A stretch of DNA of 64,000 nt from Escherichia coli. Its GTDB lineage: Bacteria; Pseudomonadota; Gammaproteobacteria; Enterobacterales; Enterobacteriaceae. The position numbers were made by a program, and so were the translations under genes. The DNA lies in NCBI RefSeq assembly GCF_003019035.1, contig NZ_CP027447.1. The stretch is one strand, 5' to 3'. Every line of letters begins with the position of its first letter. The first letter of the stretch is position 1. Positions 11,531 to 20,081 of the stretch are shown here, piece after piece. The notes beneath the pieces are model-generated. The model did no database searches. It was not told the DNA's origin and worked only from the letters and a program-made list of their open reading frames with translations.

Positions 11531-14500
11531 ATGAGCGGAAAACCGGCGGCGCGTCAGGGCGACATGACGCAGTATGGCGGTAGCATTGTTCAGGGTTCTG
11601 CCGGGGTGCGTATTGGTGCCCCCACCGGTGTGGCCTGTTCGGTGTGCCCCGGCGGGGTGACGTCCGGCCATCCGGTCAATCCGCTGCTGGGTGCAAAGGT
11701 CCTTCCCGGCGAAACCGACCTTGCCCTGCCCGCCCCGCTGCCGTTCATTCTCTCCCGCACCTACAGCAGTTACCGGACAAAAACGCCCGCGCCGGTGGGG
11801 AGCCTCGGCCCCGGCTGGAAAATGCCTGCGGATATCCGCTTACAGCTGCGCGATAACACTCTGATACTCAGTGATAACGGCGGCAGAAGCCTGTATTTTG
11901 AGCACCTGTTTCCCGGTGAGGACGGTTACAGCCGCAGCGAGTCACTCTGGCTGGTGCGCGGCGGCGTGGCGAAACTGGATGAAGGTCACCGGCTGGCCGC
12001 ACTCTGGCAGGCGCTGCCGGAAGAGCTTCGCCTGAGTCCGCATCGTTATCTGGCGACGAACAGTCCACAGGGGCCGTGGTGGGTACTCGGCTGGTGTGAG
12101 CGGGTGCCGGAGGCGGAGAAGGCCACTTCCGGCGGGACGGAACCGTCCGCTTTTCCTGATACCCTGCCGGGTTACACCGAATATGGCCGGGACAACGGCA
12201 TCCGTCTGTCTGCCGTGTGGCTGACGCACGACCCGGAATACCCGGAGAATTTACCTGCCGCGCCGCTGGTGCGCTATGGCTGGACGCCACGCGGCGAACT
12301 GGCGGTGGTGTATGACCGCAGCAATACACAGGTGCGCAGCTTTACTTACGATGATAAATACCGGGGCCGGATGGTGGCGCACCGCCGCGCGGGCCGGCCG
12401 GAAATCCGTTACCGTTACGACAGCGACGGGCGGGTGACAGAACAGCTAAACCCGGCAGGCTTAAGCTACACGTATCAGTATGAGAAAGACCGCATCACCA
12501 TCACCGACAGCCTGGACCGCCGTGAAGTGCTGCACACGCAGGGCGAAGGCGGGCTGAAGCGGGTGGTGAAAAAGGAACACGCGGACGGCAGCGTCACGCA
12601 GAGTCAGTTTGACGCGGTGGGCAGGCTTAAGGCACAGACGGATGCCGCAGGCCGGACGACTGAGTACAGCCCGGATGTGGTGACGGGACTCATCACGCGC
12701 ATCACCACGCCGGATGGCAGGGCATCGGCGTTTTACTATAACCACCACAACCAGTTAACGTCAGCCACCTGGCCTGACGGGCTGGAAATACGCCGGGAAT
12801 ATGATGAATCCGGCCGTCTGATTCAGGAAACCGCACACAACGGCGATATCACCCGCTACCGTTATGATAATCCACACAGTGACTTCCCCTGCGCAACGGA
12901 CGATGCCACCGGCAGCCGGAAAACCATGACGTGGAGCCGTTACGGTCAGTTGCTGACCGTCACTGACTGTTCCGGTTATGTAACCCGTTATGACCATGAC
13001 CGCTTCGGGCAGATGACGGCGGTGCACCGCGAGGAAGGCCTGAGCCAGTACCGCGCATACGACAGCCGTGGACAGTTAATTGCGGTGAAAGACACGCAGG
13101 GCCATGAAACGCGGTATGAATACAACGCCGCCGGTGACCTGACCGCCGTCATTGCCCCGGACGGCAGCAGAAACGGGACACAGTACGATGCGTGGGGAAA
13201 GGCCGTCCGTACCACGCAGGGCGGGCTGACCCGCAGTATGGAATACGATGCTGCAGGACGGGTCATCCGCCTGACAAACGAAAATGGCAGCCACACCACC
13301 TTCCGTTACGATGTACTCGACCGGCTGATACAGGAAACCGGCTTTGACGGCCGCGCACAGCGTTATCACCACGACCTGACCGGCAAACTTATCCGCAGCG
13401 AGGATGAGGGGCTGGTCACCCACTGGCACTATGACGAAGCAGACCGCCTCACGCAGCGCACCGTGAATGGCGAAACCGCAGAGCGGTGGCAGTATGACGA
13501 ACGCGGCTGGCTGACAGGCATCAGCCATCTCAGCGAAGGGCACCGGGTGACGGTGCATTACAGGTATGATGAGAAAGGCCGCCTGACCGGTGAGCGCCAG
13601 ACGGTGCATCACCCGCAGACGGAAGCACTGCTCTGGCAGCATGAAACCAGACATGCGTACAACGCGCAGGGGCTGGCGAACCGCTGTATACCGGACAGCC
13701 TGCCCGCCGTGGAATGGCTGACTTATGGCAGTGGTTACCTGGCAGGGATGAAGCTGGGTGACTCGCCCCTGGTGGAGTACACCCGCGACCGCCTGCACCG
13801 GGAAACGCTGCGCAGCTTCGGCCGTTATGAACTCACCACCGCTTATACCCCTGCCGGGCAGTTACAGAGCCAGCACCTGAACAGCCTGCAGTATGACCGC
13901 GATTACACCTGGAACGACAACGGCGAACTCATTCGCATCAGCAGCCCGCGCCAGACCCGGAGTTACAGCTACAGCGACTCCGGCAGGCTGACCGGCGTTC
14001 ACACCACCGCAGCGAACCTGGATATCCGCATCCCGTATGCCACGGACCCGGCAGGTAACCGCCTGCCCGACCCGGAGCTGCACCCGGACAGCACCCTCAG
14101 CATGTGGCCGGATAACCGTATCGCCCGTGACGCGCACTATCTTTACCGGTATGACCGTCACGGCAGGCTGACGGAGAAAACCGACCTCATCCCGGAAGGG
14201 GTTATCCGCACGGATGATGAGCGGACTCACCGGTACCATTACGACAGCCGGCACCGGCTGGTGCACTACACGCGGACACAATATGCAGAGCCGCTGGTCG
14301 AAAGTCGCTATCTTTACGACCCGCTGGGCCGCAGGGTGGCAAAACGGGTATGGCGACGTGAACGGGACCTGACGGGCTGGATGTCGCTGTCACGGAAACC
14401 GGAAGTGACCTGGTACGGCTGGGACGGCGACCGGCTGACCACGATACAGAACGACAGAACCCGCATCCAGACGATTTATCAGCCGGGGAGCTTCACGCCA

Positions 14501-15571
14501 CTCATCAGGGTCGAAACCGCCACCGGTGAGCTGGCGAAAACGCAGCGCCGCAGCCTGGCGGATGCGCTTCAGCAGTCCGGCGGCGAAGACGGTGGTGATG
14601 TGGTGTTCCCGCCGGTGCTGGTGCAGATGCTCGACCGGCTGGAAAGTGAAATCCTGGCTGACCGGGTGAGTGAGGAAAGCCGCCGCTGGCTGGCATCGTG
14701 CGACCTGACGGTGGCGCAGATGCAAAACCAGATGGAACCGGTGTACACGCCGGCGCGAAAAATTCACCTGTACCACTGCGACCATCGCGGCCTGCCGCTG
14801 GCGCTTGTCAGCACGGAAGGGGCAACAGCGTGGTACGCAGAATACGATGAATGGGGCAACCTGCTGAATGAAGAGAACCCGCACCAGCTGCAGCAGCTCA
14901 TCCGCCTGCCGGGTCAGCAGTATGATGAGGAGTCCGGCCTGTATTACAACCGCCACCGCTATTATGACCCGCTGCAGGGGCGGTATATCACTCAGGATCC
15001 GATTGGGCTGAAGGGGGGATGGAACCTGTATGGATATCAATTGAATCCGATATCAGACATCGACCCCCTGGGTTTATCTATGTGGGAGGATGCAAAATCG
15101 GGGGCATGTACTAATGGTCTTTGCGGCACACTATCCGCTATGATAGGTCCAGATAAGTTTGATTCTATAGATAGCACCGCATATGACGCCTTAAATAAAA
15201 TAAATAGCCAATCTATTTGCGAAGATAAAGAGTTCGCTGGTTTAATATGTAAGGATAATAGTGGCAGATATTTCTCAACAGCACCTAACCGAGGGGAAAG
15301 AAAAGGATCATATCCATTCAATAGCCCTTGCCCTAATGGTACTGAGAAAGTATCAGCTTATCATACTCATGGTGCAGATAGTCATGGAGAATATTGGGAC
15401 GAAATATTTTCAGGCAAAGATGAGAAAATAGTTAAAAGTAAAGATAACAATATCAAGTCATTTTATTTGGGCACGCCCAGTGGTAATTTTAAAGCAATAG
15501 ATAACCACGGGAAGGAAATAACAAACGGAAAAGGATTACCTAATGTCTGCAGAGTTCATGGTAATATGTAA
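11531..15571 (+). CDS. rhsA: Rhs-family polymorphic toxin (PAAR-like N-terminus, YD-repeat core, variable C-terminal toxin tip)
   Basis: 1346-aa ORF; N-terminal [17 protein letters not shown]...; many YD/RYxYD repeats; core ends at DPxGL (DPLGL, nt 15062-15076) followed by an AT-rich ~164-aa C-terminal domain with several Cys; located between yibF and yibA. Confidence 0.9.
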
Positions 15572-15926
15572 AAAAATATTGTTTAGGAACTGTGTCATTG
15601 TATCTTTGTTTGTTTTTACATACAACACATGGGCGCAGTGTAATAATAATATTAAAATAATGCGCAAGTATGAAAGTGAGGGTAAATATACCGTTAGAAA
15701 TTTGGTTAAAAATAAAGCTATAGCATTGGAATTAGCTGAGATATATGTTAAGAATCGTTATGGGCAGGATGCCGCAGAAGAAGAAAAACCATATAAAATC
15801 ACTGAGTTAACAACAAGTTGGGTTGTTGAAGGCACCATTCACTCAGACCAAATTGCTGGTGGGGTTTTTATTATAGAAATAGGCAAAAATGATGGGGGAA
15901 TTCTGAATTTTGGCCACGGAAAATAA
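15543..15926 (+). CDS. Candidate Rhs immunity protein (hypothetical)
   Basis: 127-aa ORF overlapping the last 29 nt of the rhs gene; AAGGA Shine-Dalgarno about 7 nt before the ATG; hydrophobic N-terminus; AT-rich like the toxin tip. Assigned by position only. Confidence 0.45.
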
Positions 15927-16030
15927 GTATGTAAGGATAATCAAACATCGTGTGCGCTGATGGCAGAGTAGGTGGAGGACTCCAGACAGTCAAACGATAA
16001 AAAAAGATAGCCTTTATGGAGGTTCCTGCA

Positions 16031-16873
16031 ATGTCAAATACATACCAGAAAAGAAAGGCAAGTAAAGAGTATGGTTTATATAATCAATGTAAGAAACTAA
16101 ATGATGATGAATTATTTCGCTTACTTGATGATCACAATTCCTTGAAAAGGATTTCATCTGCCAGAGTATTACAGTTAAGAGGTGGGCAAGACGCTGTTAG
16201 ATTGGTAATTGAGTTCTGCTCTGATAAAAATTATATCCGTAGAGATATCGGAGCATTTATACTCGGGCAAATAAAAATTTTCAAAAAATGCGAAGATAAT
16301 GTGTTTAATATTTTGAACAATATGGCATTGAATGATAAGAGCGCTTGCGTTCGAGCTACGGCAATCGAGTCAACGGCTCAGCGATGCAAGAAAAACCCAA
16401 TTTATTCACCTAAAATAGTAGAACAATCTCAAATTACTGCTTTTGATAAATCGACTAATGTCAGACGTGCTACAGCATTTGCTATTTCTGTTATCAATGA
16501 TAAAGCAACAATTCCACTATTGATTAATCTGTTAAAAGATCCAAATGGAGATGTCAGAAACTGGGCCGCATTTGCAATAAATATCAATAAATATGATAAT
16601 AGTGATATTAGGGATTGTTTTGTGGAGATGCTTCAGGATAAAAATGAGGAAGTCCGTATTGAAGCAATAATCGGACTTTCCTACAGAAAAGATAAAAGGG
16701 TTTTATCTGTTTTATGCGATGAGTTAAAAAAAAATACTGTTTATGATGATATCATTGAAGCTGCGGGTGAATTAGGTGATAAAACGCTACTTCCTGTTTT
16801 AGATACTATGTTGTACAAGTTTGATGACAATGAAATTATAACTTCCGCTATTGATAAGCTGAAGCGTTCATAG
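16031..16873 (+). CDS. yibA: HEAT/armadillo-like repeat protein
   Basis: 280-aa product from ATG 16031 (MSNTYQKRKASKEYGLYNQ...), GGAGG Shine-Dalgarno 8 nt upstream; ORF-track start 16016 is 5 codons further up. Matches my recollection of E. coli YibA. Confidence 0.8.
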   Translation: MSNTYQKRKASKEYGLYNQCKKLNDDELFRLLDDHNSLKRISSARVLQLRGGQDAVRLVIEFCSDKNYIRRDIGAFILGQIKIFKKCEDNVFNILNNMALNDKSACVRATAIESTAQRCKKNPIYSPKIVEQSQITAFDKSTNVRRATAFAISVINDKATIPLLINLLKDPNGDVRNWAAFAININKYDNSDIRDCFVEMLQDKNEEVRIEAIIGLSYRKDKRVLSVLCDELKKNTVYDDIIEAAGELGDKTLLPVLDTMLYKFDDNEIITSAIDKLKRS

Positions 16874-16920
16874 CGTGAGTTGCCTATGCACAGTGGGGTA
16901 TTCCCGCCGGCACGGTGCAG

Positions 16921-17040
16921 ATGCTCGATCGGCTGGAAAGTGAAATCCTGGCTGACCGGGTGAGTGAGGAAAGCCGCCGCTGGCTGGCATCGTGCGGCCT
17001 GACGGTGGCGCAGATGAAAAAACAGATGGAACCGGTGTAC
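16921..17040 (+). pseudogene. 5' portion of an orphan rhs core-end ORF, separated from its 3' part by an ISAs1-family insertion
   Basis: nt ~16901-17040 nearly duplicate rhsA nt ~14618-14746 (encoding [40 protein letters not shown]); reading frame runs into the IS left end and stops there. Confidence 0.7.
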
Positions 17041-18331
17041 CAGGGAAAGATCACGTAACGCTGCTTTTTTGTACTAAACAATTCGCATTTTATGTTTAAA
17101 AATTGAGATATTCCTCATTACCTGAAGCTGTTTTTTATTGCTTATACATGATCAAATACTCCTTACATAATTAAGGAGAACAAAATGGTACTTAAAAAAT
17201 TGATGGAACATATTTCTATTATCCCCGATTACAGACAAGCCTGGAAAGTGGAACATAAATTATCGGATATTCTACTGTTGACTATTTGCGCCGTTATTTC
17301 GGGTGCAGAAGGTTGGGAAGATATAGAGGATTTTGGGGAAACACATCTCGATTTTTTGAAGCAATATGGTGATTTTGAAAATGGTATTCCTGTTCACGAT
17401 ACCATTGCCAGAGTTGTATCCTGTATCAGTCCTGCAAAATTTCACGAGTGCTTTATTAACTGGATGCGTGACTGCCATTCTTCAGATGATAAAGGCGTCA
17501 TTGCAATTGATGGAAAAACGCTCCGGCACTCTTATGACAAGAGTCGCCGCAGGGGAGCGATTCATGTCATTAGTGCGTTCTCAACAATGCACAGTCTGGT
17601 CATCGGACAGATCAAGACGGATGAGAAATCCAATGAGATTACAGCTATCCCGGAACTTCTTAACATGCTGGATATTAAAGGAAAAATCATCACAACTGAT
17701 GCGATGGGTTGCCAGAAAGATATTGCAGAGAAGATACAAAAACAGGGAGGTGATTATTTATTCGCTGTAAAAGGAAACCAGGGGCGGCTAAATAAAGCCT
17801 TCGAGGAAAAATTTCCGCTGAAAGAATTAAATAATCCAGAGCATGACAGTTACGCAATTAGTGAAAAGAGTCACGGCAGAGAAGAAATCCGTCTTCACAT
17901 TGTCTGCGATGTCCCTGATGAACTTATTGATTTCACGTTTGAATGGAAAGGTCTGAAGAAATTATGCGTGGCAGTCTCCTTTCGGTCAATAATAGCAGAA
18001 CAAAAGAAAGAGCCCGAAATGACGGTCAGATATTATATCAGTTCTGCTGATTTAACCGCAGAGAAGTTCGCCACAGCAATCCGAAACCACTGGCACGTGG
18101 AGAATAAGCTGCACTGGCGTCTGGACGTGGTAATGAATGAAGACGACTGCAAAATAAGAAGAGGAAATGCAGCAGAATTATTTTCAGGGATACGGCACAT
18201 CGCTATTAATATTTTGACGAATGATAAGGTATTCAAGGCAGGGTTAAGACGTAAGATGCGAAAAGCAGCCATGGACAGAAAGTATCTGGCGTCAGTCCTT
18301 GCGGGGAGCGGGCTTTCGTAATCTTTCCCTG
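17041..18331 (+). mobile_element. ISAs1-family insertion sequence (H-repeat element), apparently intact
   Basis: Imperfect terminal inverted repeats CAGGGAAAGATCACG... (left) and ...CGTAATCTTTCCCTG (right; first 11 nt identical); flanked by 9-bp direct repeat CCGGTGTAC (17032-17040 and 18333-18341); carries a full-length transposase ORF. Confidence 0.85.
17185..18321 (+). CDS. ISAs1-family transposase (H-repeat-associated protein)
   Basis: 378-aa [54 protein letters not shown]..., recognisable as the H-repeat (YhhI/YdcC-type) transposase found in E. coli Rhs elements. Confidence 0.9.
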
Positions 18332-18335
18332 CCCG

Positions 18336-19109
18336 GTGTACACGCCGGCGCGAAAAATCCACCTGTACCACTGCGACCATCGCGGCCTGCCGCTGGTGCT
18401 TATCAGCACGGAAGGGGCAACAGCGTGGTACGCAGAATATGATGAATGGGGCAACCTGCTGAATGAAGAGAACCCGCACCAGCTGCAGCAGCTCATCCGC
18501 CTGCCGGGTCAGCAGTATGATGAGGAGTCCGGCCTGTATTACAACCGCCACCGCTATTATGACCCGCTGCAGGGGCGGTATATCACTCAGGATCCAATTG
18601 GGCTGAAGGGGGGATGGAATTTTTATCAGTATCCGTTGAATCCGATAACTGATATTGACCCGTTGGGATTAGCGACCTGTTTATACAGCATAACTTTAGG
18701 TATGCTTTCATGCGTTTCAGATACGCCAAGTGATGATAATTCTTATGGTGTGCTTACTATTTCAGTCGCCTCTGATAATAATGGTAATAATATGCAATGT
18801 AAAAATAATCCTGGTTGTACACACTTACAAAATAGAGGCCCAATACCTCAAGGGGTATGGAGCTGGAATGTTAATGGTCCTGGAGCAACCAATAGAAAAC
18901 CTAATGGTATACGTTTAGTACCGTCAGCAAATACAGAAACGTATAATCGTGATGGATTTTTAACACATAGTTGTTTAAACGCTTTTGGTCCATCTTTAGG
19001 ACCTCGATTCTGTTCCGAGGGTTGTATAACTGGTTCATCTAATGACATGCAAAAATTAAATGAGCTAATATTTTCAGAGCCAGATAGCACATTAACAGTG
19101 ACGGACTAG
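18336..19109 (+). CDS. Orphan Rhs C-terminal fragment: core end plus a distinct toxin tip (3' part of the disrupted orphan)
   Basis: 257-aa ORF, GTG first codon; N-terminal 105 aa nearly identical to the rhsA core end (…[19 protein letters not shown]…[10 protein letters not shown]…), DPLGL at 18657-18671, then an unrelated AT-rich tip ([17 protein letters not shown]...). Confidence 0.8.
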
Positions 19110-19113
19110 AAAT

Positions 19114-19635
19114 ATGGCAAGGTTATTAACAATTGTGCTTTTTTTCTCTATTTCTGCGAATGCAGTTACTGTAAACCAATTTCAGAGAGAGTTGGATTTG
19201 GCAGACAAGGCAATATTATGGGCACTAATATCAGCCAGTACCCAAGAGGGACGAAAAGCGTGTTCACTTAGCTATTTTTCATGTAAAGCCGCAGAGGCTG
19301 AACTCGGACTGGCATATATGGCTGCTAATGATAACAAGGCATTTCTCACATCCTTATCTAGAATAATGATGTACAAAATAGATGCTGGACTTTCCGAATC
19401 CTATACATGCTATTTATTAAGCAAGGGAAAGATCATAAGACCATATCTGAAGAATCTAAATCCACACCAACTTGTCGCTGATTGCATTGAAACTGTAAAT
19501 AAAATAAAAGATAAAAATAAAAAAATCATTGATATAGATTCAGTTAATATTTGCAATGATAATAAAAATATAAATTGGAGAGTTAATAGTACTATTGTAG
19601 CCATTGATGATTCTATAAAATGCATCGATGAATAA
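19114..19635 (+). CDS. Candidate immunity protein for the orphan Rhs toxin tip (hypothetical)
   Basis: 173-aa ORF starting 5 nt after the orphan stop; very AT-rich; signal-peptide-like N-terminus MARLLTIVLFFSISANA. Assigned by position only. Confidence 0.45.
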   Translation: MARLLTIVLFFSISANAVTVNQFQRELDLADKAILWALISASTQEGRKACSLSYFSCKAAEAELGLAYMAANDNKAFLTSLSRIMMYKIDAGLSESYTCYLLSKGKIIRPYLKNLNPHQLVADCIETVNKIKDKNKKIIDIDSVNICNDNKNINWRVNSTIVAIDDSIKCIDE

Positions 19636-19796
19636 TAACTTAATTATATTTAAAAATATATTAATAACTCACTCTCCAGGAGTTTTTTTAACTTAGTGTT
19701 ATAATGAATACGATAATTAAAAGTGAAGAGAAAAATAGTTGTATACATATATTCCATGAACCTACATTGTGATCTATAAATTATATATTTTTAAAT

Positions 19797-20081
19797 GTGA
19801 CTGTCATCCTTCAGATAATAAAGCCATCATCGCAATAGATGGAAAAGCACTCCTGCTCTTTTTTGATTAGAGCCGTGGCAGAGGAACAACTCATATCATC
19901 ATTGCGATCTCGACAATGTATAGTCTGATCCTTCGGCAGATCAAGACGGATAAAAATCCAATGAGTTCACACTCATCCCGAACTTCTTAACATAATGGAT
20001 ATTAACGAAAAATCATCACAGCCGATGAAATAATATGCAAAAATAATTAGTCCTTGCAGGGAGCAAAGTTCCATAATCTCC
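19797..20081 (+). pseudogene. Degenerate, internally deleted ISAs1-family (H-repeat) remnant
   Basis: nt 19797-~20027 align with indels to the central part of the intact transposase gene (e.g. TCATCCTTCAGATAATAAAGCCATCATCGCAATAGATGGAAAAG versus CCATTCTTCAGATGATAAAGGCGTCATTGCAATTGATGGAAAAACG); ~20045-20081 resemble the IS right end; no intact ORF. Confidence 0.6.

Follow-up and report, generated by a model that had tools for sequence, protein, structure and literature searches.

The 64,000-nucleotide stretch of Escherichia coli DNA analysed here, called the window throughout, contains the rhsA locus. The gene order, read from the list of open reading frames and from the annotation of the near-identical genome SCU-301 (99.7% identity over positions 15000-19700 of the window), is selB-selA-yibF, then rhsA with its trailing modules, then yibH-yibI-mtlA. 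The rhsA gene (11531-15571, plus strand, 1346 codons) encodes a conserved Rhs core, 96% identical to that of K-12 rhsA up to position 15048, followed by a toxin tip of the K-12 RhsB type (Pfam DUF4329, 8e-40). Its 3' end is overlapped by 29 nt by a yhhH-like gene (15543-15926, plus strand), which codes for the cognate immunity protein of the DUF4329 tip (Imm-NTF2-2; Pfam PF15631, 3.5e-25) and is annotated as yhhH in SCU-301. The next gene on the same strand is yibA (16031-16873). The preliminary description of this DNA had located yibA after the tip/immunity pair of rhsA and before an orphan rhs core-end fragment starting at about 16901. This arrangement is confirmed, the upstream pair being the DUF4329 tip and the Imm-NTF2-2 gene, and homology to the core end begins slightly earlier, at 16891. 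The G+C content falls from ~62% in the rhs core to 32-38% over the tips and immunity genes, yibA included.

Two features of rhsA itself were recorded. At 12116/12117, an in-frame segment of 195 nt (65 codons) that K-12 rhsA and rhsB share is missing from the gene of the window, whose product accordingly has 1346 residues, compared with the 1411 expected for an RhsB-type gene. In SCU-301, the closest complete genome (L001 2540-6571), rhsA is annotated as frameshifted, and so are the ISAs1 transposase and the orphan tip further downstream, whereas the corresponding open reading frames are intact in the window. These discrepancies may reflect a strain difference or an assembly error.

The yibA open reading frame comprises 280 codons and a stop, with no internal stop codon, and an RBS-like GGAGG (16018-16022) lies 8 nt 5' of its ATG. 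RefSeq annotates the same gene as yibA in SCU-301. The window matches the K-12 locus at 99% from 15979 to 17040 (L002 8286-9347), with yibA aligned base for base; the two yibA genes are 99.6% identical in DNA, and the proteins share 278 of their 280 residues. The two substitutions are A59V and C84F. At codon 59 (16205-16207), the window and the identical SCU-301 copy have Val, and Ala occupies this column in 12 of the 13 aligned family members, K-12 among them; residue 84 falls in a variable column of the family alignment. YibA is a HEAT-repeat protein (Pfam HEAT_2, 5.2e-23; HEAT, 1.9e-17), and a structural-genomics crystal structure deposited under the name 'hypothetical protein yibA' (PDB 1OYZ) matches residues 1-280 with E = 5e-181. 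Its match to HEAT_PBS is weak and at the level of the repeats (1.3e-05, 25.7 bits), far below the generic HEAT matches.

The window copy is thus the same gene as K-12 YibA (b3594; PDB 1OYZ), and it shares with it the 20-nt spacer, the RBS and the orphan rhs fragment further downstream. What differs is the upstream partner. In K-12, yibA begins 20 nt past the rhsA stop codon, and the RhsA tip that precedes it belongs to Pfam Ntox34 (7.7e-44). In the window, the gene is preceded by a DUF4329 tip and an Imm-NTF2-2 gene. In a blastn comparison with the K-12 locus, the window falls into three segments: homology of the core extends to 15048, the block 15049-15978 is unmatched, and homology resumes at 15979. 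The unmatched block is 930 nt long and 98.7% identical to the rhsB-yhhH region of many E. coli. It consists of the last ~15 core codons, the DUF4329 tip, the Imm-NTF2-2 gene and a 52-nt tail, and it stands in place of 389 nt of the K-12 Ntox34 tip.

Homology resumes within the tip and not at yibA. Positions 15979-16010 (ACTCCAGACAGTCAAACGATAAAAAAAGATAG, plus strand) reproduce exactly the end of the Ntox34 tip of K-12 rhsA (32 nt, comprising its last 10 codons and the TAG). A tblastn search matched the peptide SRQSNDKKR (9/9 residues), a three-way alignment placed the right junction exactly at 15978/15979, and the alignment with the Salmonella Ntox34 tip begins at the same base, 15979. The stub is followed by the 20-nt spacer of the ancestral tip-yibA junction (16011-16030), identical to that of K-12 and containing the GGAGG. 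Hence, the suspicion voiced in the preliminary description that the ~100 bp between 15927 and 16030 hold a remnant of an older tip proved well founded. The remnant is small, since 389 of the 421 nt (~92%) of the old tip-specific sequence are gone and 32 nt are left. Searches with tblastn and with a small Ntox34 HMM on six-frame translations revealed no further Ntox34 sequence in the 64-kb window, and blastn found no homology to the rhs core between 15049 and 16030, i.e. no core-end fragment in front of yibA.

An immunity role of YibA is already in the literature. According to a passage of Poole et al. 2011 (PMC3150448) that cites Vlazny & Hill 1995, the C-terminal region of RhsA inhibits growth and blocks recovery from stationary phase, and yibA, the open reading frame directly downstream, neutralises this effect. 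Zhang et al. 2012 (PMC3482391) described Ntox34 as an all-alpha toxin found on RHS proteins and gave Imm-HEAT as the matching immunity family. The YibA protein of the window is a HEAT-repeat protein of the group encoded directly downstream of Rhs Ntox34 tips, and it differs from this published pairing in that the toxin half is gone from the locus, where the 32-nt stub alone precedes yibA.

The same pairing was found outside K-12. The preliminary description had proposed to look for rhs tips immediately followed by yibA homologues in other genomes, and such tips are present in K-12-type E. coli, Salmonella enterica, Snodgrassella alvi and related contigs. In Salmonella enterica (L010-L012), a homologue with 74% identity lies ~21-22 nt past an orphan RHS+Ntox34 open reading frame. 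In Snodgrassella alvi (L015) and in related bee-gut metagenome contigs (L005, L006), homologues with 43-44% identity overlap the end of the Ntox34 open reading frame. Ntox34 is thus encoded directly upstream of a YibA homologue in three genera, and the assignment of yibA as the cognate immunity gene of an Ntox34 Rhs tip is supported. A profile search of genome contigs with the YibA family alignment returned four loci, two of which are E. coli-like contigs binned into unrelated metagenome-assembled genomes, so that this search yields no useful cross-species statistic. One of the Salmonella loci (L010 5897-9271) contains both types of modules in the order opposite to that of the window: the orphan RHS+Ntox34/HEAT module comes first, and an orphan DUF4329 tip (47%) with its Imm-NTF2-2 gene (51%) follows ~700 nt further on.

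Other observations might suggest a function of YibA unrelated to Rhs, such as stress protection or a lyase activity, in which case its adjacency to an rhs tip would be incidental. A Tn5 insertion in K-12 yibA was published to render cells easier to kill with nalidixic acid, UV, H2O2 and SDS, membership of the sigma-32 regulon has been suggested in the literature, and databases label the protein a 'putative lyase'. In addition, two homologues with 44-51% identity (L007 6001-6855 and L009 2947-3837) are solitary genes in housekeeping surroundings that contain no toxin. We nevertheless regard an unrelated function as very improbable. Immediate adjacency to Ntox34 recurs in three genera, and both the neutralisation of the RhsA C-terminus, in the passage of PMC3150448 that relies on Vlazny & Hill 1995, and the Imm-HEAT assignment (PMC3482391) have been published. 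The 'lyase' name appears to derive from the HEAT_PBS repeat similarity, and the gene is missing from ~42% of E. coli genomes. As for the stress phenotypes, they come from a K-12 strain that still encodes the toxin, and they are therefore what loss of an antidote could produce. Together with an Rhs locus that lacks Ntox34 and has two HEAT genes in tandem (L008 5955-7879), the two solitary homologues form a set of Ntox34-less relatives with 43-51% identity overall; these could represent additional orphan immunity genes or serve a different purpose.

The yibA gene of the window is best explained as an orphan immunity gene that outlasted an exchange of the rhsA toxin tip, with the Ntox34 tip lost and protection against Ntox34-armed rivals probably retained. 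We put the probability of this reading at roughly three in four. The ancestral order would have been that still seen in K-12, namely Rhs core, Ntox34 tip, 20-nt spacer and yibA. Immunity proteins of polymorphic toxins generally bind their toxin directly, and YibA, a HEAT-repeat alpha-solenoid, would presumably neutralise the Ntox34 toxin in the same manner. Recombination would then have imported a DUF4329 tip together with its own Imm-NTF2-2 immunity gene. The left crossover probably took place in the conserved core end, ~15 codons before the DPLGL sequence (DPxGL motif), near 15048/15049, and the right junction, at 15978/15979 just upstream of the yibA RBS, appears to be illegitimate. Such an exchange would have removed 389 nt of the Ntox34 tip and left in place its terminal 32 nt as well as yibA with its RBS. 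The cell would now fire a DUF4329 toxin and, provided that yibA is still expressed, would probably remain protected against Ntox34-armed Rhs toxins from K-12-type E. coli or Salmonella.

This scenario departs from the classical model of C-terminal displacement, developed for orphan rhs-CT/rhsI and cdiA-CT/cdiI modules (Jackson et al. 2009, PMC2935791; Poole et al. 2011, PMC3150448), in which the old tip is pushed downstream as a whole, preceded by a second copy of the core fragment, through a single crossover that involves a circular intermediate. The window has in common with that model an rhs locus in which a newer tip/immunity pair is followed by an immunity gene of older origin. However, classical orphans keep a core-end fragment and a whole tip, whereas yibA of the window keeps 32 nt of tip. 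The missing core-end fragment in front of yibA and the loss of 389 of 421 nt indicate that the old tip was deleted or replaced rather than shunted intact. The preliminary description had presented yibA as a possibly displaced orphan immunity gene. Its status as an orphan immunity gene is supported by the pairing with Ntox34 and by the stub, but displacement in the classical sense is not.

A textbook orphan of the displacement model does exist in the window, immediately downstream of yibA. The module at 16891-19635 has kept its core-end fragment, its tip and its immunity gene, all on the plus strand. The first part of the core-end fragment (16891-17040) corresponds to the 5' part of K-12 yibJ, with 92.7% identity to the core end of K-12 rhsA and 99% to the K-12 yibJ region. 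It is interrupted by an ISAs1-family element (ISEc1/H-rpt; 17041-18332) with a transposase open reading frame at 17185-18321 (Pfam DDE_Tnp_1_assoc and DDE_Tnp_1), and the 9-bp direct repeat CCGGTGTAC is present at both edges of the element (17032-17040 and 18333-18341). The second part of the core end, identified by blastn and by Pfam, carries a Tlde1-like toxin tip (18333-19109; RHS 1.9e-16, Tlde1_dom 2.9e-07), and the immunity gene of this tip belongs to the Imm57 family (19114-19635; Pfam Imm57, 1.4e-44). Relative to K-12 (L002 9222-12147), the corresponding stretch of the window (18333-19635) is devoid of the yibJ tip and of the yibG (Sel1) module: the core-end fragment runs straight into the Tlde1-like tip and a full-length Imm57 gene of 173 residues. 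The K-12 counterparts of this module are the pseudogenes yibS and yibW and a shorter yibV. Scanning 14800-19800 against Rfam with a permissive threshold gave zero matches.

The junction upstream of yibA is not restricted to rhsA. The K-12 rhsB locus (rhsB-yhhH-yrhC-yhhI) has the same DUF4329 tip, Imm-NTF2-2 gene, 52-nt tail and 32-nt stub, followed by the 5' end of yibA. In contrast with the full-length, intact gene of the window, however, the yrhC copy at the rhsB locus is truncated by ISEc1 at nt 347; it contains a nonsense codon and has accumulated eight changes in 347 nt. The IS end that cuts yrhC is the same as that of the element found in the orphan module of the window. A test based on informative sites addressed whether the core and the yibA 5' end came from an rhsA- or an rhsB-type source; the K-12 rhsA and rhsB cores are almost identical, and decay private to yrhC confounds the yibA part.

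The close association of yibA with the new tip might also suggest that YibA acts as an additional or accessory immunity protein against the DUF4329 toxin and hence is no orphan at all. The gene has the same orientation as the DUF4329/Imm-NTF2-2 pair and starts 104 nt past it with no predicted terminator in between, and hundreds of genomes carry all three genes together. Against this, the DUF4329/Imm-NTF2-2 pair forms a module of its own in Salmonella, and the Ntox34 stub identifies replacement as the origin of the linkage. Moreover, the rhsB loci of K-12 and ST540 keep an intact DUF4329-tipped rhsB and yhhH next to a yibA copy truncated at nt 347 with a nonsense codon. We therefore rejected this explanation, which we find hardly credible.

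We determined how widespread the orphan arrangement is among 5426 complete E. coli genomes, for which summary counts were obtained feature by feature rather than as a per-genome cross-table of tips and yibA. The K-12 layout, in which an Ntox34 tip is contiguous with yibA, is present in 1757 of the 5426 genomes. The toxin-less layout of the window, with the NTF2 immunity gene, the stub and a full-length yibA, accounts for 1184/5426. A sensitive blastn search detected Ntox34 tip DNA anywhere in the genome in 1799/5426, which is so close to the number of contiguous loci that K-12-type loci account for nearly all Ntox34 tips. In the toxin-less genomes that were sampled, each record had one match place and no tip. 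The junction itself was found in 2972/5426 genomes, more than the toxin-less layout, because the K-12-type rhsB locus has the same tip, yhhH, tail and stub.

Sampling of individual records documents the state of the orphan gene. In 12 of the 13 sampled toxin-less records, yibA is annotated as intact; it is frameshifted in the remaining one. An intact yibA is found next to a frameshifted NTF2 immunity gene in five loci (L017, L018, L021, L027 and L028) and next to a broken rhs tip in another (L024). In three of the sampled toxin-less records, the yibA DNA is identical to that of K-12.

These data bear on whether the orphan still serves the cell. It could instead be a functionless relic that was stranded recently, offers no protection and has disabling mutations still to come. 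The cognate toxin is missing from the window, yibA is frameshifted in one of the sampled records, and yrhC at the rhsB locus has clearly decayed. Among close orphan yibA copies, we counted five nonsynonymous and two synonymous variants, near the neutral expectation and indistinguishable from relaxed constraint, and A59V alters a nearly invariant column. A diverged orphan copy (L018) gave a dN/dS of ~0.17, a value that is not assignable to its orphan period, and the orphan copies in general offer too few substitutions for dN/dS. The evidence on selection for orphan yibA is equivocal.

Expression of the orphan was considered in the same light. In a scan for promoters and terminators, the interval from the NTF2 gene to yibA was free of terminator-like sites, and no convincing promoter or terminator specific to yibA emerged. 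A SELEX RNA-polymerase peak has been reported inside K-12 rhsA upstream of yibA; by a coordinate estimate, it maps to the deleted part of the tip, and the promoter may therefore have been lost together with the tip, as would suit a relic. On the other side, the yibA open reading frame is intact in 12 of the 13 sampled toxin-less records even where the NTF2 gene or the rhs tip is broken, and three of these records match K-12 yibA exactly in DNA, in contrast to the decay of the truncated yrhC. The junction is common to the rhsA and rhsB loci and to 2972 genomes, and thus it is not very recent. Furthermore, the Ntox34 weapon is carried by about a third of E. coli genomes and is a plausible selective agent. 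On balance, we consider the relic reading plausible but unlikely. Retained immunity to Ntox34 is the more probable reading, although both continued expression and continued benefit are points that we infer.

The sampled records also revealed a third layout (L017 5486-6867, L018 5011-6395, L021 2514-3895 and L028), consisting of an 87-nt DUF4329 stub, a frameshifted Imm-NTF2-2 gene, a 32-nt Ntox34 stub and an intact yibA. These elements lie downstream of stacked, toxin-less immunity-like genes, including those for a hypothetical protein of 189 residues, an Imm-NTF2-2 protein, a DUF6258 protein and a pentapeptide-repeat fragment. The third layout represents the replacement process repeated. Judging from 273 records in the 80-90% identity band, it may occur in ~270 genomes.

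Earlier work had already described yibA, the toxin with which it pairs, its structure and the idea of orphan immunity, and a tip swap that leaves an orphan antidote is an ordinary outcome for rhs loci. The significance of the present case beyond correct annotation is therefore small, the specific stub and the population counts being a tidy but unsurprising addition. For annotation, yibA at this locus should be described as a toxin-less Rhs immunity gene, and the labels 'lyase' and unknown function should be avoided. The locus offers a clean, dated case of tip exchange in which the old toxin was discarded and the old antidote kept. With 1757 armed and 1184 immune-only genomes out of 5426, it also provides a ready natural system for asking whether selection keeps orphan immunity genes in E. 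coli.

More speculatively, Ntox34 and YibA might constitute a three-state polymorphism across the species E. coli, with ~32% of genomes armed and immune, ~22% immune only and ~46% neither, possibly maintained by frequency-dependent Rhs warfare. Tip replacements might in addition be selected to break just 5' of the translation start of the resident immunity gene, which would build toxin-less immunity arrays such as those of L017, L018, L021 and L028. We offer this as a tentative proposal, conceivable but with the odds against it.

A final observation concerns the end of the Ntox34 tip, which contains a run of seven A residues (15999-16005). One extra A would fuse the tip in frame to YibA (...SNDKKKIALVEVPAMSNTY...). 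Such a form could result from real slippage or from a homopolymer sequencing error, and a fused tip-YibA protein of 483 residues (P0001) is indeed present in the database, with 15 member sequences.
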